Assembly (NCBI GenBank): GCA_002482685.1
Contig: DLGL01000106.1
Span: 1 to 50,396 of the forward strand
Direction: 5' to 3'
Length of the DNA stretch: 50,396 nucleotides
Origin: Bacteriovoracaceae bacterium UBA7695
GTDB taxonomy: Bacteria; Bdellovibrionota; Bacteriovoracia; Bacteriovoracales; Bacteriovoracaceae
Shown: positions 6,676 through 21,424 of the stretch, piece by piece
Layout of the letters: each line of letters starts with the position of its first letter
How positions within the stretch are numbered: position 1 is the first letter of the stretch
Made by a program: the position numbers and the translations under genes
The notes under the pieces: model-generated
Told to the model about the DNA's origin: nothing
What the model saw: only the letters and a program-made list of their open reading frames with translations
Database searches by the model: none

Positions 6676-7275
6676 TTAAGAAACTCTTCTGGTGGGTGCA
6701 GGAATCATCCCACTCACCAGCATTTCCTGATCAGAGACGGCCTCATCACGTAAAACTTTTTTAAAGATCAAATTGTTGTCACCTAGTTTATTTTGACTGG
6801 CGAGAATCGACATGAGAGTTGTCATAGATTCAAAACACGTGGCAAACATTTGGTAAAAACGAGGAATATCCAAAAAGCTCGTTCCTACTGTATTCAAATG
6901 AGAGTAAGCCGTTTTCCCAATCTGCGCGTAGTACTGAGCATCAACTAGTTTCTTGTGTGTGGACTCAGCAAAATAGCCGCAAACCAAAAGCGACATATCG
7001 GCCACTTCTTTATAGATCCGTTTTTGTTCTTCCCGGGAGTATTGAGCGGCTTCCATAAGTTTCAACCCAAGAATCTTTTCCCGCACTTTTCCGTCGATAA
7101 CATCAAAATAGTCCTGCGAGAGGGCAAACTTATCCAGAACATCGCTTGAATAGAAAATGAAAGACTCAGGAACAGGGCATAGTGATTTTTTATTAAGCGC
7201 ATTCAGACCGTCGAAGAAATACCCCTGGAGGTTGGTCTGAAGAATTATCTTCTTGTCTGATTCAGGTGTCTGCAT
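6676..7275 (-). CDS. Hypothetical cytoplasmic helical protein
   Basis: 199-aa ORF with GGAG RBS upstream. Protein-like composition, motif ADMSLLVCGYF..LVDAQYYAQIGKTAY. No function recognised. Confidence 0.7.
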   Translation of the reverse strand: MQTPESDKKIILQTNLQGYFFDGLNALNKKSLCPVPESFIFYSSDVLDKFALSQDYFDVIDGKVREKILGLKLMEAAQYSREEQKRIYKEVADMSLLVCGYFAESTHKKLVDAQYYAQIGKTAYSHLNTVGTSFLDIPRFYQMFATCFESMTTLMSILASQNKLGDNNLIFKKVLRDEAVSDQEMLVSGMIPAPTRRVS

Positions 7276-7323
7276 CCAAGATCTCCTTTACTTATTTTAT
7301 CATATCGCGAAAAAACCGACGGA

Positions 7324-7350
7324 ATTAACCCCGGAATATTTTGCCGATCT
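7324..7350 (+). promoter_or_regulatory. Possible sigma-28 (FliA)-type promoter
   Basis: ATTAAC...GCCGATCT lies about 25 nt upstream of ATG 7376. Partial match to TAAA/TCAAG-N14-15-GCCGATAA. Confidence 0.3.
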
Positions 7351-7375
7351 CTTAAAACCAAGGGAAACTAAGGGG

Positions 7376-8086
7376 ATGAAACGCCTTAAAAATCTCTTCG
7401 CAGTTCTGATTCTATTGCTGGCCTTACCTGCCTGGCGCCTCCTGGACTGGGCAGTACTGACTCTCCCCTTTCCCATAATGATCACCATCATGCAGACCAT
7501 TTGGATGGGCCTTTTTGTAGCTCTGCCTTTGAACCTTATTATTACCCGGTTTAGCCGCTGGTTCGTGCTGGGGACCATCCTTTTTTTTGCTCTAGTAACT
7601 TACCTAGCTGGCCCTTTATCTGGTCAGGCTACACTTGACCCTAACCTGACTCATTGTGGGCGCACAACTTACACTGGAACTCTCTATCCTTTGAGAGTGG
7701 TGCTCTTCTCTTCCCACCAAGATGACCTGGAAATCAGAAATCAAATGTGCTGGGTTACTAAGTTAATTAAAAAAGTTCCCTCTAATATTGCAGCCGAAGA
7801 TCTTGCCGATCAGTTGAATGGAATGAAGTTCAGGCTTATGAAGCCAGAAATTAAATACAGGGTTACACTTCCCTGGATTACATTCCTTTTAGGAATGTAT
7901 GTGAATTCTTCCGGAATTGAGAATGGTCCCTTATTGATACAAAATCTCGGCTACTGGTCTAACCTTTATTCCCATCAAATTTCGGGAAGAGAATATTCTT
8001 GGTCTGAGTGGCCTCATTCTGAGGTTGTAAAATTCGAATACGGATTTATAGAAAGAAACTGGGAAAATATTAAAATCGAATTTTAA
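7376..8086 (+). CDS. Hypothetical membrane protein (about 3 N-terminal TM helices plus a soluble domain with a Cys pair)
   Basis: Probable start MKRLKNLF at 7376 after AAGGGG. The 7253 start in the ORF track overlaps the divergent gene. Hydrophobic N-terminal segments. Confidence 0.65.
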   Translation: MKRLKNLFAVLILLLALPAWRLLDWAVLTLPFPIMITIMQTIWMGLFVALPLNLIITRFSRWFVLGTILFFALVTYLAGPLSGQATLDPNLTHCGRTTYTGTLYPLRVVLFSSHQDDLEIRNQMCWVTKLIKKVPSNIAAEDLADQLNGMKFRLMKPEIKYRVTLPWITFLLGMYVNSSGIENGPLLIQNLGYWSNLYSHQISGREYSWSEWPHSEVVKFEYGFIERNWENIKIEF

Positions 8087-11720: not shown

Positions 11721-12425
11721 ATGAAACTATTTTTACTAGCGTTTGTTCTTATTTCTCAATCCGCCCTCGCTTATGACGCTCTAGTATGGGGTGGTCCTGG
11801 AGCCTGTGAAGACGATTGTGTAACAGCCGCTGTCCACGTAACAAAAATGGCAGGGTTAAATCCGATGGTGGTGACGCCAGAAAACTTTGACCCCGCCCTC
11901 CTCGAATCGGCCAGGGTTTGGGTAACTCCCGGTGGAAAATCATCTAAAGTTTCTATCGCATTAGGCGCTGCCAACCGCGAAGCTATCCGCAGGTTTGTGT
12001 TCAACGGTGGTGGGTATGTAGGTTTTTGCGCAGGTGGATTTCTCACAACTCATAAGGTAGGAACCACAAAATATGCTGGACTTGGAATTGTAGACGGAAA
12101 ATCGGCACCATATAAAAAATCTCGTTCAGCTGTCTCCCTGCAAGCATTAATTACCCCTGCAGGAATCAAGTATCACTATTGGGAAGGTGGCCCTTACTTT
12201 TCATTTAATGCCGCTCAAGCACAAAGAATTAACATTACCTCAAGGTATAAAAAAACCTACCAAATCAACGGACTTGAAACAACTTACGGCTCTGGAAGAG
12301 TTTCCATTACAGGAACGCATCCTGAAGCACCACAATGGTGGTATGAGGACGAAAATATTTCTGATATAGATGGATCAGATAACGAGGAAGCTGCGGCCAT
12401 GATCAAATGGGCAGCAAAAAAATAA
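11721..12425 (+). CDS. Exported BPL_N-like (class I glutamine amidotransferase fold) protein
   Basis: Signal peptide ending ALA-Y, PGG motif, [11 protein letters not shown] nucleophile elbow and HPE motif. AGGAG RBS. Confidence 0.75.
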
Positions 12426-12426
12426 T

Positions 12427-12981
12427 ATGTTAGCAGATAGTCTGAAAGAAGTTACCGCTGGTGTTCATTCTCAATTAGAAAAGAAGATGGACATCATGTC
12501 CCACCTGAACACTCGTAGTGACTATCTGGAGTTAGTAAAAAAATTTTATCAGTACTATTTGTCGGTCGAGCCTATACTTAAAAATTTTTCTCCCCGCCTC
12601 CCGATGGAAGGTCGGGAAAAACTGCCTCTCCTCACTAAAGATCTTTTAAATCTTGGTCTAAGTGGTGCTGACATCGAGGCTTTGACCAAAGCACCCATCC
12701 CAAGTCTACAATCACTCCCGGAAGCCATAGGAGCTTTGTATGTACTGGAGGGATCAACCCTGGGGGGCCAGGTCATTTCAAAACATCTCCAAAATAAATT
12801 ACAAATTACTCCTGATTCAGGTGGAGCTTTCTTCTGGGCCTACGGGAATAAAACTATGCCAATGTGGTTGTCTTTTAAGAACTTCTTAAACTCTGACGAC
12901 ACTGCAGGCCTGCAAGAAAATCCTAAGGTACTGGAATCCGCAAAAGAGACCTTTTTATCGATGGAAAAGTGGCTTTGTTAA
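12427..12981 (+). CDS. bphO: Biliverdin-producing heme oxygenase (BphO type)
   Basis: LKEVTAGVHSQLE (proximal His), ALYVLEGSTLGGQVI signature and W..F C-terminal motif. Adjacent to a bacteriophytochrome. Confidence 0.9.
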   Translation: MLADSLKEVTAGVHSQLEKKMDIMSHLNTRSDYLELVKKFYQYYLSVEPILKNFSPRLPMEGREKLPLLTKDLLNLGLSGADIEALTKAPIPSLQSLPEAIGALYVLEGSTLGGQVISKHLQNKLQITPDSGGAFFWAYGNKTMPMWLSFKNFLNSDDTAGLQENPKVLESAKETFLSMEKWLC

Positions 12982-13037
12982 CTTAACTTACTGAAAGTTT
13001 TCATCTATAAATTTCTCATAACTTTCAGGAGCTTTTC

Positions 13038-13397
13038 ATGTCCCATAAGATTCTTGTGATTGAAGACGATGAAGCCTCTCGTATGATGTACTCGGAAATT
13101 CTCTCAATGGAGGATTTTGAAGTTATCGAAGCCGAAGATGGTCACTCCGCTTTAAATTATCTTCACAATAATCCAAATCCTGATTTGATTCTTATGGATT
13201 TAACTTTTCCGAATATGACTCCAAAGGAATTTGTCACCGATTTGAAAGGTAATCCTCACACAAACTCTATTCCTTATATATTTATCTCAGGACAGGGAAC
13301 AATCAGGGAACAGGCCCAGGAACTTGAAGCAACAACCTATCTTAAAAAGCCTTTTGATCTGGATGATTTTGTAAGTCTCGTAAAAAAACACTCATGA
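13038..13397 (+). CDS. Single-domain response regulator (CheY-like)
   Basis: ILVIEDD, DLILMDLTFP (phospho-Asp), ISG and KKPF motifs. 119 aa, AGGAG RBS. Confidence 0.92.
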   Translation: MSHKILVIEDDEASRMMYSEILSMEDFEVIEAEDGHSALNYLHNNPNPDLILMDLTFPNMTPKEFVTDLKGNPHTNSIPYIFISGQGTIREQAQELEATTYLKKPFDLDDFVSLVKKHS

Positions 13398-14930
13398 TCT
13401 CATCTTTAATTTAGAACCCAGCTCCTGAATCAAACTATTATTTTTGATGAGGAGATCAAATATCAAATCACTAAAATTCTTAGCACCATCTATTTCATGT
13501 TTAAGCCATGGTTCAGATTTATTTTTAATAACTTCAGTCCAAGTTTCAAAAGATGCCCTTGGGTTAATAGGGCCCTGATAATTTCTCTGCTCGAAATTTT
13601 TTCTCGGATCACCACCCCAGTGAATTGTCTGAAGAATTTCTGGTCTAAAAAACACCAGCAGTGAATTATCAATTTCGTTAAGTCTTAAAGCAATGAGCCC
13701 ACTCGCCTGATCCTTAAGAAGATACCATTCTTTACCGTGCTCACTGAGAGCGTCCGTGACAAAAATTCTTTTATTCTGCCGGTCCATTATTTGGTTGAGT
13801 TCTTTGGCAAGGTTAAGAACATCCTCTGACAGAGGAGTTAATCCATAAGCATTTACTTTATCGTTTGAAACTACCGCAAACCCAAGGGTATGAAATATCT
13901 GATTAACCTCAGATCCTAGCTTAAATAACTCACTATAGGGATTGAGTGAATCTTTAAGTTTAACAAAAAAATCTTGAAAGCGCTTATTGAAGCTAATAAT
14001 TGATTCCTGACGAAGCCCCTTCTCAATTAGGGGAGCACTGAGCGCCAGACAATTTGAAATCGTTTCACAGTGCGATCGATTTTTATGGCTTATAAAAACA
14101 GGATCCGGACTGTGACAAGCTATTAGGCCCCACAGTTCTCCTTCAACTTTTATCGCCACAGAAAATGACCCCCGCACTCCCATATTTTTTAAATATTCCA
14201 AGTGAATCTCAGATACACCTCTTAATCTGGAATTGGATAAATCAAGATTTGTTTGTTTATTAAATCCTGAAAGGATGGGTGAATTTTCAGTTGTTATGTC
14301 ATTTATAAGTCGGACCTGATTTTTCAGGTACAAATCTCTAGCTGGCCTTGGGATATCAGACGCTGGAAAACGGTGTCCTGCAAATGAATGAGATCCTGAT
14401 GTTCTATCCTCAGCAATCACTTCACCATACATGTCCGGTGGAAAAAATCTGTAGAGCATAACTCTGGACATACCTGTCAATGTACGAATGGCCCTACATG
14501 CAAAAAGACTTAACTCAGCGACATCCTTCGCCACTTTCATTGATTCAAGAAAATTGTTTATGATGATACCGGAATCAATCTTAGATGAGTCCTCTACTAT
14601 CTTCTCAATTTCGATTCCGATTAAGGTTTCATCAATTTTATAAAGATAGACGTCGAGGTTTTGCCACACGAATGAAACTGGGTGGACTATATGATTTAAG
14701 ACTTTCTGTTGAATTATTTTAAATAGCTCATGAGGCAAGAGTAGATTTAACTTTTCCCCTACTTTCATCTTTGACGGCTCTGGCATGTCAAAAAAGCTGG
14801 TTGCATTCTCACTGATAAAAAGTATTTTCAGGTCTGCTTTTGATACAGCTGTGAATATTCCATGTCCTTGAATCGAATGGATGAGATGAATTTGTTCCTT
14901 GTCGCACGAGGTGAGATCTACAGACTTCAT
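13392..14930 (-). CDS. bphP: Bacteriophytochrome photosensory core only (PAS-GAF-PHY), no output domain
   Basis: LTSCDKEQIHLIHSIQGHG (biliverdin-binding Cys), RVMLYRF, GHRFPASDIP, SEIHLEYLKNMGV, LWGLIACH and PHY tongue WGGDP...PRASF. Stop at 512 aa, right after the PHY helix. Confidence 0.93.
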   Translation of the reverse strand: MKSVDLTSCDKEQIHLIHSIQGHGIFTAVSKADLKILFISENATSFFDMPEPSKMKVGEKLNLLLPHELFKIIQQKVLNHIVHPVSFVWQNLDVYLYKIDETLIGIEIEKIVEDSSKIDSGIIINNFLESMKVAKDVAELSLFACRAIRTLTGMSRVMLYRFFPPDMYGEVIAEDRTSGSHSFAGHRFPASDIPRPARDLYLKNQVRLINDITTENSPILSGFNKQTNLDLSNSRLRGVSEIHLEYLKNMGVRGSFSVAIKVEGELWGLIACHSPDPVFISHKNRSHCETISNCLALSAPLIEKGLRQESIISFNKRFQDFFVKLKDSLNPYSELFKLGSEVNQIFHTLGFAVVSNDKVNAYGLTPLSEDVLNLAKELNQIMDRQNKRIFVTDALSEHGKEWYLLKDQASGLIALRLNEIDNSLLVFFRPEILQTIHWGGDPRKNFEQRNYQGPINPRASFETWTEVIKNKSEPWLKHEIDGAKNFSDLIFDLLIKNNSLIQELGSKLKMRS

Positions 14931-17900
14931 TTTTTAATCCATTTGTTAATTAACTGATGAAGTATGTTCATCTGAACAGGTTTAGTCGCATAATCATTCA
15001 TACCAGAATCCAGGCATCTTTCCCGGTCTCCAGGCATTGCGTTAGCGGTTAAAGCGATGATCGGTAATTTTTTGTAGGACTCGCCCAGGCTTCTAATCTT
15101 TTGAGTCGTCTGAAGACCATCCATAACTGGCATTTGCATATCCATTAAAACCACGTCTAGATTTTCATTCATAACCGTCTCTAAAGCGTCATGCCCACTT
15201 CCGGCCACAGACACAGTCGCTCCGGCCTCTTTGAGCATGAGTTCCAGGACCTTAAGACTTTCACTACTATCATCTACGGCGAGGATTTTTATCCCTCTTA
15301 AATCAAATTTTGTATGACCTAACTCAAGATCATGTTCGAGCTTAGTTGTTTTCTGCAAATTGACCTGGAACCAAAAAGTACTTCCTTCGCCTTTTTTACT
15401 CTCAAAACCAATGGTCCCGTTCATGAGTTCTACCAGCTGTTTTGAGATAGAAAGTCCCAATCCTGTACCACCAAACTTTCTGGCACTGCCCGAATCGGCC
15501 TGTGAGAAACGTTTAAAAATTTTACTAAAAGCTTCTTCCTCAATGCCAATTCCTGAATCTTTAACTTCGAAATAGATCGGAGAAGGGGCAGATGAGACTT
15601 GTGAGAAAACCTGAACACGCAAGTTGACTGTGCCATTTTCGGTGAATTTAATAGCGTTTCCGATTAGATTAATAAGAATCTGCTTTATGCGTACCTGATC
15701 GCCCAATAAAATCAAGTCCGTATTGAAATCTTCTTCAACTGATAGTTTAATTTTTTTCTCTAACGCCAGAGTCTCAAAAGTTTGAATTACATCATGAATC
15801 ATTAAAGACAGTGAAAATGGCTTCATATCAAAATGAATTTTACCCGCCTCTATTCTCGAAAGATCCAGCACATCTTCAATCAAGGAAAGAAGAACTTTAC
15901 TAGAACGGGAAATACTCTCAACTAATTTCAACTGTTGTGGTGGAATTTTTGAGCGACTTAAGAGTTGAGACATACCCATAATGACGTTAAGAGGCGTCCT
16001 CAACTCATGACTCATAGACGCCAAAAAATCACTCTTTGCTCTGTTGGCAGATTCTGCATTATGTTTTTCATCCCTGAGAGCGAGCTCAGTTCTCTTGAGT
16101 TTAGATATATCCTTACTTATGGTAACTACACGTATGACGTTCTGGTCATCATCTAAAATAGGAACCATTGTATTGGAGAGATACCTTGATCCTGACGGTC
16201 CAGGAACCTCTTCTTCAAACATCACAATCGACTTCGTTTTTAAACATCTTTCGTAGTTTTTTAAAACTTCGGTGTGGTTTGTCGGATCTACCAGATCCTT
16301 GAGACTCATTCCAAGAAAATGATTTGGGGAAAGATTTTTTTTACTGGTACTTTGATTAAAAGATTCGAGGTATAATTCTCCGTCTTTTAGTTTATAAACT
16401 GAGAGGTAGTCTGAAGTATGCTCAAGAACCTGAGCAAAAATAGTCTCTTTCTCAAGTAGCTCTACAGTTTTATTATGGATCTCTGTTGTATCAAACCCTA
16501 CCGACTGATACTCAGTAATCTTTTGATTATCATCATAGAGGGCACGGTGAATCCATCTCACCCATCTGACAGGGGCCGGGGAGTGATTTTTTACTCTATG
16601 TTCATACTGAACAATAGGAGACTCCGGGTTTAGTTTTGAAATTTCAAACGAAACTTTTTTCTTATCAACATCATCAACGATAGAGAGGAAAGTAAGACTC
16701 TTGTTACTGAGATCAGTTCCACCGAAATAGTTGCAAAATGCTTTGTTAGTAAATGTAAAATACCCGTCACTGGTATGTCTGGAAACAAAGACGGCTTGAT
16801 CTTCAATAATGGCCTTATAGCGGCTCTCGCTGGTTGCGAGCTCTTTTTGCATCATTACTTGTGACGTGACATCAATCCCAACTGTTCCAACTGCATAAGG
16901 ATTTTTCTCGTTTGAGCCGTATAATGGAAACCGGTTCATAAATAAAGAAATAGTTTTTCCATTAAGAATAATTTCTTCCTGTCGCTCAGAAGGTTTTCTC
17001 TTGAAAAGGACTTCCAGATCACCTTCACGGAAGAAATTTGCAACATCGTCCGGTAGGATATCGCGATCAGTTTTTCCCACAATATCTTTCTCAACCAGAC
17101 CAAACATCTCTTCAAAAGATTTATTAGCAGACAAGTAGCGTCCTTGGGCATCTTTTAAAAAAATCAAAGCGGGTGTGCCATCTATTATTGAACGGATTCT
17201 CTTGTCACTGGAAATGAGTCGCTCTTGAGCTGTCAGGATCTCCGTATTATCAAAGAATATAACAATGGCCCCAACAATATGATTATTCTCATCTCTGTTT
17301 GGATGGATACGAATTTGGTAAAAGCGCTGAGAGGTTTCACATTTTAATTCACTGACTTTGCCCGTCTCAATGGTATGTTTTATAAATTTTTCGAAATCTA
17401 TGATTTCGCAGTGGCAAGATGCCTTCGCAATATGACTTCCTAAATCAGCAAAAGTCAGATGAAAGATTTGAGATGTCTGCTCGTTGTATCGCAACAATCG
17501 AGCGTTACGATCCACCACTAACATCGGTGATGCCATGCTGGATAAAATATTCTCGAGGCTGGCATGAGCAACTCGAAGTTCCCCCGATTTTACGTTCAAC
17601 TCTTCATTTAGCGTTGTAAGTTCTTCATTAGTACTTTGCATCTCTTCATTGGTGGTTTCAAGCTCCTCGTTAGATGCTTGAAGCTCTTCATTTGTAGAAG
17701 ACAATTCTTCATTGAGAGATTGCAGTTCCTCATTAGATATCTCTAACTCCTCTATGACCGTTTGCAAGTTTTCTTTAGTGCCGGCCAACTCCTGTTCCAG
17801 TTCCAAAACTCTCTTTGGGATGTCCCCTAAATTCATTTCTTTATGGTCAGCCTCTTGCTCTATTTTTTTCATTTCAAAAGACACAAGAAACAAATCCCGC

Positions 17901-19702
17901 TGACCCTCTAATGAATTTTCAAGTTTCTGTATAGAAAATCCAAAACTTCGTTTGGGAAACTTTTCAAGTCTATATTGACGACTTTTGGCCACCTTGCCTT
18001 CTTTACTTGTTTTTTTCAGAAGCACACTAAATTCAGTCGCGGAATTCCGTGGAAGTAAATTCGAGAGACGAAAATCGGCGTGCCCAACCGGATGACTTAT
18101 AAAGTCTGAAACCGATCCGATAAAATGAACAATTACCCCATCATCATCTACAACAACTGCAGAGAGATTAAACTGCTTTAAAAGTTGTGCCGTTGCATTG
18201 AGAGCAATATTGGAGTCCACCAGTGCTTTTTGCTTCTGAGCTGATATACCAGGTGTATTCAGTGTGTAACGATGCGAAGGCTGGCCACTAAGATTGGTGA
18301 TTGCATGTAATTTCTTATAGATTTTGTGCTTCCGGTCCACTGATTCAAAAAGGTTCCCATTGGCCGTTTCAGATTTTCCTAAGAACAAATATCCATTCGT
18401 TTTAAGCGCATAATGAAAAATATCGAATACCCGGTTTTGTAATGGAGTTTCAAAATAGATGAGTACATTCCGGCAAGTGATCATATCTAGTTTTACAAAA
18501 GGAGGATTCTGGATCAAATCCTGTTTTGCAAAAACAATCATTTCTCTGATGTTTTTTTTCACCTCAAAATGATTTTCTTTTCTTTCAAAATATTTTTCTA
18601 AATAGTGATTGGGTATTCCTGCGACATCATCAATTTTATAAAGAGCAATCCTGGACTGGCCCAAGGCGTCCTGGTCCAGATCAGTTGCGAATATCTTCAC
18701 CGGCAGTGACTTAGAATGTTTACTTAAAATTTCATTAACCATAAAAGCAATAGAATACGGCTCTTCACCAGTTGCACAACCTGCAGACCAGATTCTTAAC
18801 TCTTCATCCGATTTCTTTTTAGAGATAATTTCTTCTAAATGAGTTCCCATGGTTTCAAAAGATTCAGTGTCTCTAAAAAATGAGGTCACACTAACGAGCA
18901 TCTCTTGAGATAACTGAGAAAATTCACCGGGATTTTTTTCAAGATAATGGTAATAATCTTTAACTGTAGCTTGACCAAGTCGAGCCATTCTCTTTTCTAT
19001 ACGTCTCTGAATGGTGGACATCTTGTATTGAGAAAAATCAGCGCCTATCTCTTTTTTTAGAAACAAAACAACCTTGCTGAAATCTATCTCTTCATGAGAA
19101 TCGATCTTCTCAGAATTATTTTCTCTTTTCTCCAGAATTTGGAATAATTTTTTACCTAAATCCTCGGACGACATAATTGCATCCACCATCCCTGTCTCAA
19201 TTGAGGTCTTAGGCATCCCATCATACTTAGCACTTTCCTGGCTTTGCACAAGAGTAACACCACCGTTCTCTTTGATGGCCCTGATCCCCTCGGCCCCATC
19301 AGAGCCCGTCCCTGAAAGTATGATTCCTACCGATCTTCTATTGAAAGCCTTTGCTAAGGATTGAAAGAAATAATCCACCGAAGGTTTAGGCCGCGTCTCC
19401 ACCCCGGCCTGAGTCAGAGATAATTCTCCGTTCTCAATTGAAACATCATGATTGGGGGGAACAATATATATGTGTCCAGCCTCAATGACTTGACTATCTT
19501 TTACCGCAATAACTGGAAGAGTGGTTTGTCTGGCAATCAGTTCAACCATCATACTTTTTGCATGAGGTGCCAGATGCTGGGCAACGATAAAAGCAGCATG
19601 TGGATGAGGTTCTACTTCTCTAAAAAATGCACTTAAGGCCTCAAGGCCTCCCGCTGAAGCGCCTACACCAATGACCCAAAATTCTTTCTGTTGAGTAGCC
19701 AT
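14927..19702 (-). CDS. CheB-CheR fusion hybrid histidine kinase (CheB methylesterase, CheR methyltransferase, coiled coil, multiple PAS, HisKA, HATPase, REC)
   Basis: CheB triad motifs GASAGG/QHL/GSDG. CheR motifs SAGCATGEEPYS, ATDLD and CRNVLIYF. NEEL heptads. H-box MSHELRTPL, NLIGNAIKFT, DSGIG, GGTGLGL. REC motifs VDD..DMQMP..KP. Confidence 0.93.
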   Translation of the reverse strand: MATQQKEFWVIGVGASAGGLEALSAFFREVEPHPHAAFIVAQHLAPHAKSMMVELIARQTTLPVIAVKDSQVIEAGHIYIVPPNHDVSIENGELSLTQAGVETRPKPSVDYFFQSLAKAFNRRSVGIILSGTGSDGAEGIRAIKENGGVTLVQSQESAKYDGMPKTSIETGMVDAIMSSEDLGKKLFQILEKRENNSEKIDSHEEIDFSKVVLFLKKEIGADFSQYKMSTIQRRIEKRMARLGQATVKDYYHYLEKNPGEFSQLSQEMLVSVTSFFRDTESFETMGTHLEEIISKKKSDEELRIWSAGCATGEEPYSIAFMVNEILSKHSKSLPVKIFATDLDQDALGQSRIALYKIDDVAGIPNHYLEKYFERKENHFEVKKNIREMIVFAKQDLIQNPPFVKLDMITCRNVLIYFETPLQNRVFDIFHYALKTNGYLFLGKSETANGNLFESVDRKHKIYKKLHAITNLSGQPSHRYTLNTPGISAQKQKALVDSNIALNATAQLLKQFNLSAVVVDDDGVIVHFIGSVSDFISHPVGHADFRLSNLLPRNSATEFSVLLKKTSKEGKVAKSRQYRLEKFPKRSFGFSIQKLENSLEGQRDLFLVSFEMKKIEQEADHKEMNLGDIPKRVLELEQELAGTKENLQTVIEELEISNEELQSLNEELSSTNEELQASNEELETTNEEMQSTNEELTTLNEELNVKSGELRVAHASLENILSSMASPMLVVDRNARLLRYNEQTSQIFHLTFADLGSHIAKASCHCEIIDFEKFIKHTIETGKVSELKCETSQRFYQIRIHPNRDENNHIVGAIVIFFDNTEILTAQERLISSDKRIRSIIDGTPALIFLKDAQGRYLSANKSFEEMFGLVEKDIVGKTDRDILPDDVANFFREGDLEVLFKRKPSERQEEIILNGKTISLFMNRFPLYGSNEKNPYAVGTVGIDVTSQVMMQKELATSESRYKAIIEDQAVFVSRHTSDGYFTFTNKAFCNYFGGTDLSNKSLTFLSIVDDVDKKKVSFEISKLNPESPIVQYEHRVKNHSPAPVRWVRWIHRALYDDNQKITEYQSVGFDTTEIHNKTVELLEKETIFAQVLEHTSDYLSVYKLKDGELYLESFNQSTSKKNLSPNHFLGMSLKDLVDPTNHTEVLKNYERCLKTKSIVMFEEEVPGPSGSRYLSNTMVPILDDDQNVIRVVTISKDISKLKRTELALRDEKHNAESANRAKSDFLASMSHELRTPLNVIMGMSQLLSRSKIPPQQLKLVESISRSSKVLLSLIEDVLDLSRIEAGKIHFDMKPFSLSLMIHDVIQTFETLALEKKIKLSVEEDFNTDLILLGDQVRIKQILINLIGNAIKFTENGTVNLRVQVFSQVSSAPSPIYFEVKDSGIGIEEEAFSKIFKRFSQADSGSARKFGGTGLGLSISKQLVELMNGTIGFESKKGEGSTFWFQVNLQKTTKLEHDLELGHTKFDLRGIKILAVDDSSESLKVLELMLKEAGATVSVAGSGHDALETVMNENLDVVLMDMQMPVMDGLQTTQKIRSLGESYKKLPIIALTANAMPGDRERCLDSGMNDYATKPVQMNILHQLINKWIKK
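17597..17750 (-). repeat. Seven NEE[LM] heptad repeats (coiled coil) within the CheB-CheR kinase
   Basis: EISNEEL-QSLNEEL-SSTNEEL-QASNEEL-ETTNEEM-QSTNEEL-TTLNEEL read directly from the translation. Confidence 0.9.
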
Positions 19703-19798: not shown

Positions 19799-19825
19799 AA
19801 AAAAGGCTCCGAAAGGAGCCTTTTT
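19799..19825 (-). terminator. Rho-independent terminator after the sigma-54 activator gene
   Basis: AAAAAAGGCTCC-GAAA-GGAGCCTTTTT hairpin flanked by A/T tracts, immediately after the stop at 19826. Confidence 0.88.
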
Positions 19826-21424
19826 CTATTCGCCAACGGCTCTTTTTTGAGCGCGTTTATCTAAACCATACTTTTCAACTTTCATAATCAACCCCGCCCT
19901 CGAAATCCCCAACTCTTTGGCCAATTTAGATTTATTAAAGGCACATCGCTTAAGTCCTTCACGGATCATAAGAATCTCTAATTCCTCAAGTGCATCTTTC
20001 AGAGATCCATCCGTCTTCACACCTTTCAGGAAGCTTCCACCTGATGAACTATGTGAGTGACCAGCAGACTCTCCGCTCTCAAGAATACGTGAGCTCAACA
20101 TATCCGGAGTAATCGTTTTATCTTCCCCAGCAAGAACCACTAAACGTTCAACTTCGTTTTGAAGTTCACGAACGTTACCTGGCCATGTGTGATCTAACAT
20201 CTTCTCAAGACACTTCTTCGAGAAAGTCTTAAGTGGAAGACCCGCTTCCTCACAACGCTTCTGAATAAAGAAGTCCATAAGGATAGGAATATCTTCCTGA
20301 CGCTCTTTGAGCGAAGGAAGAGCTACGTTAATGACGTTAATTCTGTAATAAAGATCTTCTCTGAACTCACCCTTAGCAATCATCTCTTTAAGTGGTTTGT
20401 TCGTTGCTGCGATCACGCGAACGTTTACTTTCTTCGGAGTTGTAGCTCCGACTTGCATGTACGTTCCTTCCTGAAGAATACGAAGCAGTTTAACCTGCAT
20501 CGAAGGAGACGTATCCCCGATCTCATCCAGGAACAATGTTCCGCCGTTAGCTACTTCGAATACACCTTTCTTATCTTTCACAGCACCTGTGAATGATCCT
20601 TTCACGTGACCAAACAATTCTGAGTCTAAAAGGTTATCGTTGAACGCTGAACAGTTCACGGCCATGAAGACCGCATCTTTTCTTGTTGAATTGTAATGGA
20701 TCGCTTTCGCTACCATTTCTTTACCTGTTCCGTTTTCCCCTTGAATCAGAATTGTTGATTCAGAGTTCGAAACTTTGGAAAGCAAGTGATAAACCTGCTG
20801 CATCTTTTTCGATTTACCAATCAGGTTATGGTAACGGTATTTATTTCCAAGCTCAGAGTTAAGATCCATAATGCGTGCTTCACGCTTAGAGATCTCACCG
20901 TGGAAACTTGCAACTTCTTCGGCCACAAGACCAACCAGCTCTTTCATATTGTCGAAATCTTTGTCAGAAAATTTCTTCATCTTCGCAACTGCCGCTTTCG
21001 CGTCAACTTCCGGAACTCCGCACTCACACATCTTAGCGACAACTTTCGCAGCATCTTCTGATGTGCAAGTATCTCTAAAGTAAGGGTAAGCAAAGATCGC
21101 ACCCTGAACATCTCCATCCACAATCACTTTCTGAGCGAACCCAAAGGCCTGAGGAAAAAATGATTCAAACTGAACCCAGTTCTGATCATGGCTTGCAAAA
21201 GTTTCAAACACTTTTTCTACGTCTGACTCAAGCCAGTCGTGTCCATAGCCCTGAGACATCTGAAGTTTAAAGAATGGTGACTTATAAGGGTAATCAGTCT
21301 GATTGATAAACTGAACTCTACCCTGCTCATCTGCATAGAAAATATCAAGGCCATACCAGCCTCCGATAATCTGCTCGAGCTTCTTATTTACGTGAAGTTC
21401 TTTAATGGATTTCCAATCAATCAT
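19826..21424 (-). CDS. Sigma-54-dependent enhancer-binding protein (Fis-type HTH) with a PocR-like N-terminal sensor
   Basis: [47 protein letters not shown] and C-terminal [12 protein letters not shown]. The ~170-aa N-terminus resembles the PocR fold by eye. Confidence 0.9.

Follow-up and report, generated by a model that had tools for sequence, protein, structure and literature searches.

An output-less bacteriophytochrome paired with a MAC1-type CheB-CheR hybrid kinase in a Bacteriovoracaceae bacterium and in two further phyla

The 50,396-nucleotide contig DLGL01000106.1 of Bacteriovoracaceae bacterium UBA7695 (assembly GCA_002482685.1), which is referred to here in its full length as the window, carries at positions 12427-19702 a four-gene module encoding a heme oxygenase (bphO), a single-domain response regulator (the receiver), a bacteriophytochrome that ends after its photosensory domains and a hybrid kinase of the MAC1 (methyl-accepting coiled-coil) type. 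The module is real, conserved and built from known parts, and it is apparently undescribed. We consider it moderately probable that the output-less bacteriophytochrome is a separate red/far-red input subunit that signals in trans to the core of the MAC1 protein, and that methylation of the NEEL coil in this core serves adaptation. The four genes are as follows:

12427..12981, plus strand: bphO-like heme oxygenase, 184 aa (Pfam PF01126, 46 bits)
13038..13397, plus strand: single-domain response regulator, 119 aa (PF00072)
13392..14930, minus strand: output-less bacteriophytochrome PAS-GAF-PHY, 512 aa (Pfam PAS_2-GAF-PHY)
14927..19702, minus strand: MAC1-type hybrid kinase, 1591 aa, soluble (Pfam; no hydrophobic segment above a Kyte-Doolittle value of 1.39)

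An earlier reading made from the letters alone (the sequence-only reading) had described these four open reading frames, and ORF calling and Pfam returned the same coordinates and domains, as well as the ATGA in which the kinase stop overlaps the phytochrome start (read from sequence); the receiver and phytochrome stops share 6 bases. The arrangement in two convergent pairs, also described there, holds in the window and is peculiar to this genome, bphO and the receiver being rearranged in relatives. Neither phytochrome nor kinase has a membrane segment, and the module was rightly called free of receptors and CheA, as it contains no methyl-accepting chemotaxis protein (MCP), CheA or CheW; elsewhere the genome holds a separate, full CheA/MCP che operon (contig C57), another CheB-CheR fusion and, on contig C95, a canonical phytochrome with a fused kinase.

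The phytochrome combines the PAS-GAF-PHY core with the N-terminal cysteine, DIP motif, pocket histidine and tyrosine, tongue WxG and PRxSF of bacteriophytochromes (here Cys9, DIP 192-194, His243, Tyr246, His273, WGG 438-440 and PRxSF 457-461), positions that were assigned by alignment to solved phytochromes and that presumably fill the chromophore and tongue roles usually given to them. What it lacks is the C-terminal effector of the canonical bacteriophytochrome kinases (NCBIfam BphP, 225 bits against a cut-off of 1040): the PHY match ends at residue 496 of 512, leaving 16 residues and no effector domain by Pfam, and the C-terminus is a 35-residue helix (477-511). The AlphaFold2 model (pLDDT 92.4) resembles solved photosensory modules with Foldseek template-modelling (TM) scores of 0.6-0.82. 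The 116 aligned relatives measure 480-543 aa, with at most 44 residues beyond the last PHY tryptophan, and since they are equally short and a contig of sequencing run X1 is identical, the stop is real. Among them Cys9 is kept in 114 and DIP, His243, Tyr246, His273 and PRxSF in 115-116, and the photoconversion residues and tongue motifs remain conserved down to 33% identity. The best 120 relatives are nearly all 480-543 aa long, and those named by taxon belong to Bdellovibrio or Bdellovibrionota, with one 'Proteobacteria'. Judged by its sequence, the phytochrome is whole and output-less by design, and it is likely to be a biliverdin-binding red/far-red sensor. Its C-terminal helix was considered as a methylation target and rejected, as it has no conserved EE pair. 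The tongue tip (residues 438-461; R449, G453 and N456 here) is conserved inside each of the kinase-linked clades described below and differs between them, making it a candidate light-switched binding surface.

The kinase gene encodes, from its N-terminus, the following parts:

19145..19672, minus strand: CheB methylesterase domain, aa 11-186, without the usual receiver domain, with Ser16, His43 and Asp135 (Pfam and alignment)
18353..19084, minus strand: CheR methyltransferase (CheR_N and CheR), aa 207-450 (Pfam and alignment)
17867..18208, minus strand: PAS-like domain, aa about 499-612, immediately preceding the coil and without Pfam match (AlphaFold2 secondary structure)
17591..17758, minus strand: eight (I/N)EEL heptads, aa 649-704, within a helix of 90 residues; coil predicted to accept methyl groups (alignment and model)
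16088..17557, minus strand: PAS_10, then two to three more PAS domains, aa 716-1205 (Pfam and alignment)
14948..16039, minus strand: HisKA (His1232), HATPase_c and C-terminal receiver (Asp1521), BarA/ArcB-like hybrid type (Pfam, NCBIfam)

In 87 kinase relatives, CheB Ser16 and His43 are kept in 84 (the other three being gaps), His1232 in 86, and Asp135, the S-adenosylmethionine-site residues of CheR and Asp1521 in all; together with the phytochrome residues this bears out the earlier statement that the catalytic motifs are intact. The eight EEL heptads are near-invariant across the same relatives, and they give one strict and further relaxed matches to what we take to be the chemoreceptor methylation consensus. 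An AlphaFold2 model of residues 1-830 (pLDDT 81.6; predicted TM score 0.39) places CheB, CheR, the PAS-like domain, the 90-residue helix and PAS_10 on flexible links, the heptads being carried by helix 632-722. The PAS-like domain is the least conserved folded domain of the kinase (mean 0.49) and may be the input site; an atlas look-up of it, made via homologue P0196, returned unnamed clusters only. With CheB and CheR in one protein, a coil with putative methylation sites and a kinase output in the same chain, the predicted protein fits the MAC1 class. MAC proteins were reportedly first described by Wuichet and Zhulin in 2010, and the MAC1 N-terminal core was matched by 7997 of 7998 scored candidates. 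In the accessible part of a 2022 account, MAC1 proteins are those joining CheB and CheR with receptor-like and kinase parts, MAC proteins are experimentally uncharacterised in any respect, and it is an open matter whether MAC1 proteins are precursors or remnants of chemotaxis systems (bioRxiv 10.1101/2022.05.07.491037); the class is also recognised by MiST 3.0, according to the part of that description at hand (PMC6943060).

Conservation of the gene pairing elsewhere had been set beforehand as a test of the module, and the pairing was recovered within the genus and in three phyla and is contradicted by no clade locus that has upstream DNA. Of 51 genomes in the genus, five (G000, G002, G028, G036 and G061) carry the phytochrome clade, and exactly these five also have a MAC1 subclade of at least 49% identity, 15 other genomes holding only other MAC1 proteins (31-38%). 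After duplicates were dropped, 19 distinct clade loci were available, of which 11 have a recognisable MAC1 gene directly upstream of the phytochrome, three show a contig-cut kinase or receiver end, five are without upstream DNA and none has another gene in this place, so that 14/14 loci having upstream DNA are compatible with pairing. On contigs of at least 6.4 kb, 53 of 76 output-less relatives match the contig of a close MAC1 relative in size (0/31 for distant MAC1), and adjacent accession numbers corroborate two phytochrome-MAC1 pairs. The clade is patchy (9/301 Bdellovibrionales genomes), and its cultured carriers of the pair are Bdellovibrio sp. SKB1291214, HCB209 and a B. bacteriovorus strain. 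In G061 (L024/L184) the module falls in a subclade different from that of the other genus members, either by separate acquisition or by misbinning. Outside the module, a fused phytochrome accompanies a MAC1 gene only at L180:3-6513, where a MAC1 fragment, a PAS-GGDEF-EAL gene and a phytochrome-GGDEF fusion lie one after another.

Similar pairs were obtained from two other groups. The Chitinophagaceae sample comprised 301 genomes, with 22 short-frame loci (three contig-edge fragments excluded) and 20 of 31 long-frame loci; a MAC1 kinase adjoins 20/22 of the output-less phytochromes, and CheB/CheR occurs in the fetched stretch at 0/20 of the fused ones. The gene order is reversed here (bphO-bphP-MAC1-receiver). 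The proteobacterial sample comprised 401 genomes of one class and 251 of a Rhodospirillales-centred order, in which 13 of 16 fetched loci were output-less: seven of these 13 have a MAC1-GGDEF-EAL gene directly upstream, two a decayed form and four none. The decayed modules (L245 and L256) consist of one without the MAC1 5' half, beside a transposase-like open reading frame, and one in which a CheB-CheR gene enters the phytochrome in a different frame. Where 5 kb were available on each side, 64 fused phytochromes were unlinked to MAC1 and 2 were linked. All linked MAC1 partners have in common only the CheB-CheR-PAS-coil-PAS_10 core, which is therefore the likely coupling point.

In two Chitinophagaceae fusions (L229 and L234) a sensor of the output-less clade is joined directly to a MAC1-type kinase, as placed by trees (FastTree and quick IQ-TREE). 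Within the Chitinophagaceae loci, the sensor half has 12 listed non-self matches, every one a MAC1-linked output-less phytochrome, and the kinase half has 12, every one a MAC1 kinase. Both fusions lack the methylation enzymes between sensor and kinase, a difference that insertion or deletion of the methylation core at this point could have produced. No phytochrome fused to CheB/CheR was found among the 120 listed of 260 longer proteins, which was a weak search. Taken together, the recurrence of the pairing in three phyla suggests that the sensor likely drives the kinase from outside.

The two plus-strand genes are more loosely attached to the pair. BphO makes biliverdin, and the bphO product, with its heme oxygenase fold, a proximal histidine and EGSxLG motif that align with those of HemO (1j77) and a phytochrome neighbour, is the likely, predicted biliverdin source of the module; it is the sole heme oxygenase match in the genome with the query used and has no NCBIfam match. 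A bphO gene lies near the module in 6/19 clade loci, many of which are contig-cut. The receiver keeps DD, D54, S and K and groups with 7 receivers from the module loci of relatives (SH-aLRT 90) and not with che-operon receivers; from its sequence it is likely to be the phosphate acceptor of the module. Both genes are frequent in clade loci and shift position, and several complete-looking clade loci are without the single receiver, MAC1 never being absent there.

An assembly artefact or pseudogene was ruled out by the agreement with run X1 and by the residues and lengths conserved in relatives. One contig of run X1 covers window positions 12160-15825 with zero differences, an agreement that is not independent, since this run, a biofilm metagenome and the sole sequencing run found to hold the window DNA, is possibly the source of the assembly. 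No RNA is listed among the runs holding it. The third-position GC content (GC3) of the module genes (0.33-0.42; genome mean 0.38 +/- 0.05) gives no clear signal of foreign composition, and among the 25 listed of 142 matching plasmid records identity is only 30-33%. A promoter scan of the locus was no better than chance (16 matches against 22 in shuffles). Upstream of the kinase gene, one further feature bears on transcription:

19799..19820, minus strand: terminator-like hairpin and T-run closing the upstream sigma-54 activator gene (read by eye)

The hairpin is absent from the listing of that scan, and other contigs of run X1 match it too. Given this hairpin and T-run after the sigma-54 activator gene, the kinase-phytochrome pair likely has its own transcript. 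The host genome (2.9 Mb, 82% complete) has seven flagellin matches and no reaction-centre match, in line with the earlier description of the host as non-phototrophic. The host is a flagellated member of a Bacteriovorax-like genus and is presumed to be predatory by kinship only.

The closest comparisons are with systems that share some of these parts. MAC1 proteins as portrayed in the accessible parts of bioRxiv 10.1101/2022.05.07.491037 and PMC6943060 likewise unite CheB, CheR and a kinase with a putative methyl-accepting coil in a single chain, without MCP, CheA or CheW; those parts name no input, whereas here a dedicated, overlapping photoreceptor gene and bphO are present. Canonical bphO-bphP-bphR operons (DrBphP, Agp1, PaBphP, SaBphP2) share a biliverdin-type PAS-GAF-PHY protein (28-32% identity, TM up to 0.82), a heme oxygenase and a single receiver, but their phytochrome carries its kinase covalently, whereas here the kinase is separate and bears methylation enzymes. 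Haloarchaeal sensory rhodopsin-Htr pairs, in the available part of PMC6798134, also consist of an output-less photoreceptor and a separate methyl-accepting transducer; there is no homology, and the present system is soluble and bilin-based, with a transducer that itself contains CheB, CheR and either a kinase or GGDEF-EAL, so as to need no CheA/CheW. The same part describes short LOV proteins as effector-free photoreceptors presumed to act in trans, which are flavin-based and for which it mentions no MAC1 partner. RpBphP1 of Rhodopseudomonas palustris relays its signal to another protein, the repressor PpsR2, which it binds in a light-dependent manner via a C-terminal HOS motif (PMC8707292, in part) that is absent from the window phytochrome; the PAS-helix-PAS stretch of MAC1 shows a weak resemblance to N-Q-PAS1 of PpsR (Foldseek E 1e-5), with a poor global fit. 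Ppr of Rhodocista centenaria, as far as the accessible part of PMC2993699 goes, is a phytochrome-related protein tied to chemotaxis proteins that, unlike the window protein, has its own kinase and binds CheW. The literature search yielded no description of an output-less phytochrome paired with a CheB-CheR fusion, including in the accessible parts of PMC8396549, PMC2890560, PMC12826048 and PMC2993699; subscription journals and supplements, including that of the founding MAC paper, lay outside the search and could mention the linkage. No paper on light sensing in Bdellovibrio was found in it.

According to the model we favour, biliverdin from BphO would bind Cys9, and the photosensory module would switch between the Pr and Pfr states with refolding of the tongue, as described for phytochromes in the available part of PMC6798134. 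One photostate would bind the N-terminal MAC1 core (CheB-CheR-PAS-coil-PAS_10) and shift the coil, which would set kinase activity via the PAS array. The phosphate would pass from His1232 to Asp1521 and to the single receiver, directly or via one of the genome's small histidine phosphotransfer (HPt) proteins, and the kinase's own CheR and CheB domains would methylate and demethylate the NEEL coil, following the signalling state and thus providing reset or adaptation. Since the outputs in Proteobacteria are GGDEF-EAL domains, the module more likely controls a lifestyle or stress switch than motility.

Several observations weigh against this model. Nothing was found linking the module to motility or predation, the receiver lying outside the che-operon group and the module occurring also in non-predators; signalling in trans from phytochrome to kinase, as first proposed, holds up on its genomic side (conserved pairing, three phyla, fused counterparts), and its tie to motility and predation is unsupported. 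Output-less phytochromes without a neighbouring MAC1 gene account for 2/22 loci in Chitinophagaceae, for 4/13 in Proteobacteria, for the locus L185 and for 9/12 of further Oligoflexia-class loci, the remaining three comprising one linked, one with a divergent CheB-CheR gene and one contig-cut. In four orphan-carrying genomes (G540, G614, G800 and G803) no MAC1 match was obtained with the query. The three linked phytochrome clades are each well supported, and a single origin has an approximately unbiased p (p-AU) of 0.32 if L229 is placed inside, where it is not rejected, and of 3e-6 if L229 is excluded, where it is rejected. The sample contains 2 independent phylogenetic contrasts and has no power, so that the pairing counts are descriptive. 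On the tree, other MAC1 proteins stand between the cores found in Bdellovibrionota pairs and those found in Chitinophagaceae pairs. The phytochrome and MAC1 distance matrices correlate with r 0.95, as expected of any co-inherited cassette, and partial Mantel values per domain largely track domain length. A residue signature shared among linked phytochromes or linked MAC1 cores was not found, and inter-protein mutual information over 54 pairs gave no signal (highest z 6.7, and 6.6 after neighbours had exchanged partners). The complex prediction proposed earlier was run for kinase 205-820 with phytochrome 125-508 (as monomers, without CheB or the later PAS domains of the kinase and without the PAS domain of the phytochrome) and scored 0.26 against a mark of 0.32, so that no interface was called. 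The evidence from fusions comes from Chitinophagaceae only, whose kinase is unrelated to that of the window, and a kinase-less pair persists at L039. Methylation of MAC1 proteins was not demonstrated in the accessible part of the 2022 account (bioRxiv 10.1101/2022.05.07.491037).

Of these loci, the Silvanigrellales pair at L039/L188:66-4723 has a MAC1 protein that ends after one PAS domain, its ATGA overlap with the phytochrome being kept. L215, L217, L218 and L220-L222 (G800, G803) form a separate output-less clade with bphO, in two to three copies per AT-rich genome and without a MAC1 match. For three sphingomonad-like or metagenomic short forms, the contig is too short to show what adjoins them.

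Two other readings of the same genes strike us as unlikely, to a similar degree. Methylation could be the signal and not the reset, the phytochrome switching CheB or CheR and slow coil methylation setting the output as a light memory. The absence of a gating receiver domain from CheB, for which another gate may be needed, the nine clade-specific conserved residues in CheB, several of them beside the catalytic histidine, and the regulation of CheR1 by its bound partner MapZ (from titles of solved-structure entries) would suit such a scheme; the receiver, however, is missing from CheB in all MAC1 proteins, linked or not, the density of clade-specific residues in CheB or CheR does not exceed that in PAS_10, and L229 and L234 operate without methylation enzymes, suggesting a direct path from sensor to kinase. 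Alternatively, the genes may merely be co-inherited and co-expressed in one pathway, with the phytochrome signalling via the single receiver or an unlinked partner and never contacting MAC1. The orphan output-less phytochromes that persist without MAC1, the few independent origins of linked phytochromes and the example of short LOV proteins, presumed to signal to unlinked partners (PMC6798134, available part), point this way. Against it, the receiver is missing from several complete-looking clade loci in which MAC1 is retained, adjacency survives an order reversal and three output changes, and sensor-kinase fusions exist.

Two further alternatives appear highly improbable. The phytochrome might tune a canonical fused phytochrome kinase through heterodimers, its MAC1 neighbourhood being incidental, for which such a kinase is at hand on contig C95 and further phytochromes occur in 7/15 clade genomes; the other 8, including the near-complete G036, have no second phytochrome match, and heterodimers leave the MAC1 linkage unexplained. 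Hardly more credible is a truncated relic, or a bilin or heme sink, with no role in signalling: the missing output domain and the decayed copies L245 and L256 would fit, but 114-116 of 116 relatives, down to 33% identity, retain PHY, the tongue motifs and the photoconversion residues, none of which a sink would need.

Other genes of the window and genome were recorded alongside. Upstream of the module, a sigma-54 activator (window 19826-21424, minus strand) has a 200-residue N-terminal region without Pfam match and was not seen beside the module in clade loci. A BPL_N-like protein gene (11721-12425, plus strand), beside biotin carboxylase genes and likewise not seen in clade loci, ends 1 base before bphO and may share its transcript. 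Window ORFs 2162-2875, 6676-7275 and 7253-8086 encode 199-277 aa, all three without Pfam match. The second CheB-CheR fusion (L018:1-1965; G000 contig C128) is contig-cut, 31% identical and distant from the module clade, and at L020:2-3044 (G000 contig C66) a KaiC-like ATPase lies directly upstream of a hybrid histidine kinase, in a non-phototroph.

Returning to the phytochrome as a separate input subunit of MAC1, we put forward the wider proposal tentatively, at somewhat less than an even chance: the pairs may represent a distinct class of bacterial light signalling, in which a bare phytochrome core binds, in one of its photostates, to a MAC1 transducer that methylates itself. Such a system would adapt or form a memory with just two soluble proteins, would dispense with receptor arrays, CheA and CheW, and would have kinase, hybrid-kinase and cyclic di-GMP outputs in three phyla. 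If true, MAC1 proteins would have their first identified input, and a light-switched partner would make this very common family testable in vitro by phosphorylation and methylation. It would also mean that a bacterial phytochrome can signal with its photosensory core alone, as one half of a natural light-switched binding pair and a possible far-red protein-interaction tool. The cultured Bdellovibrio carriers raise the question of the role of light in predatory bacteria.

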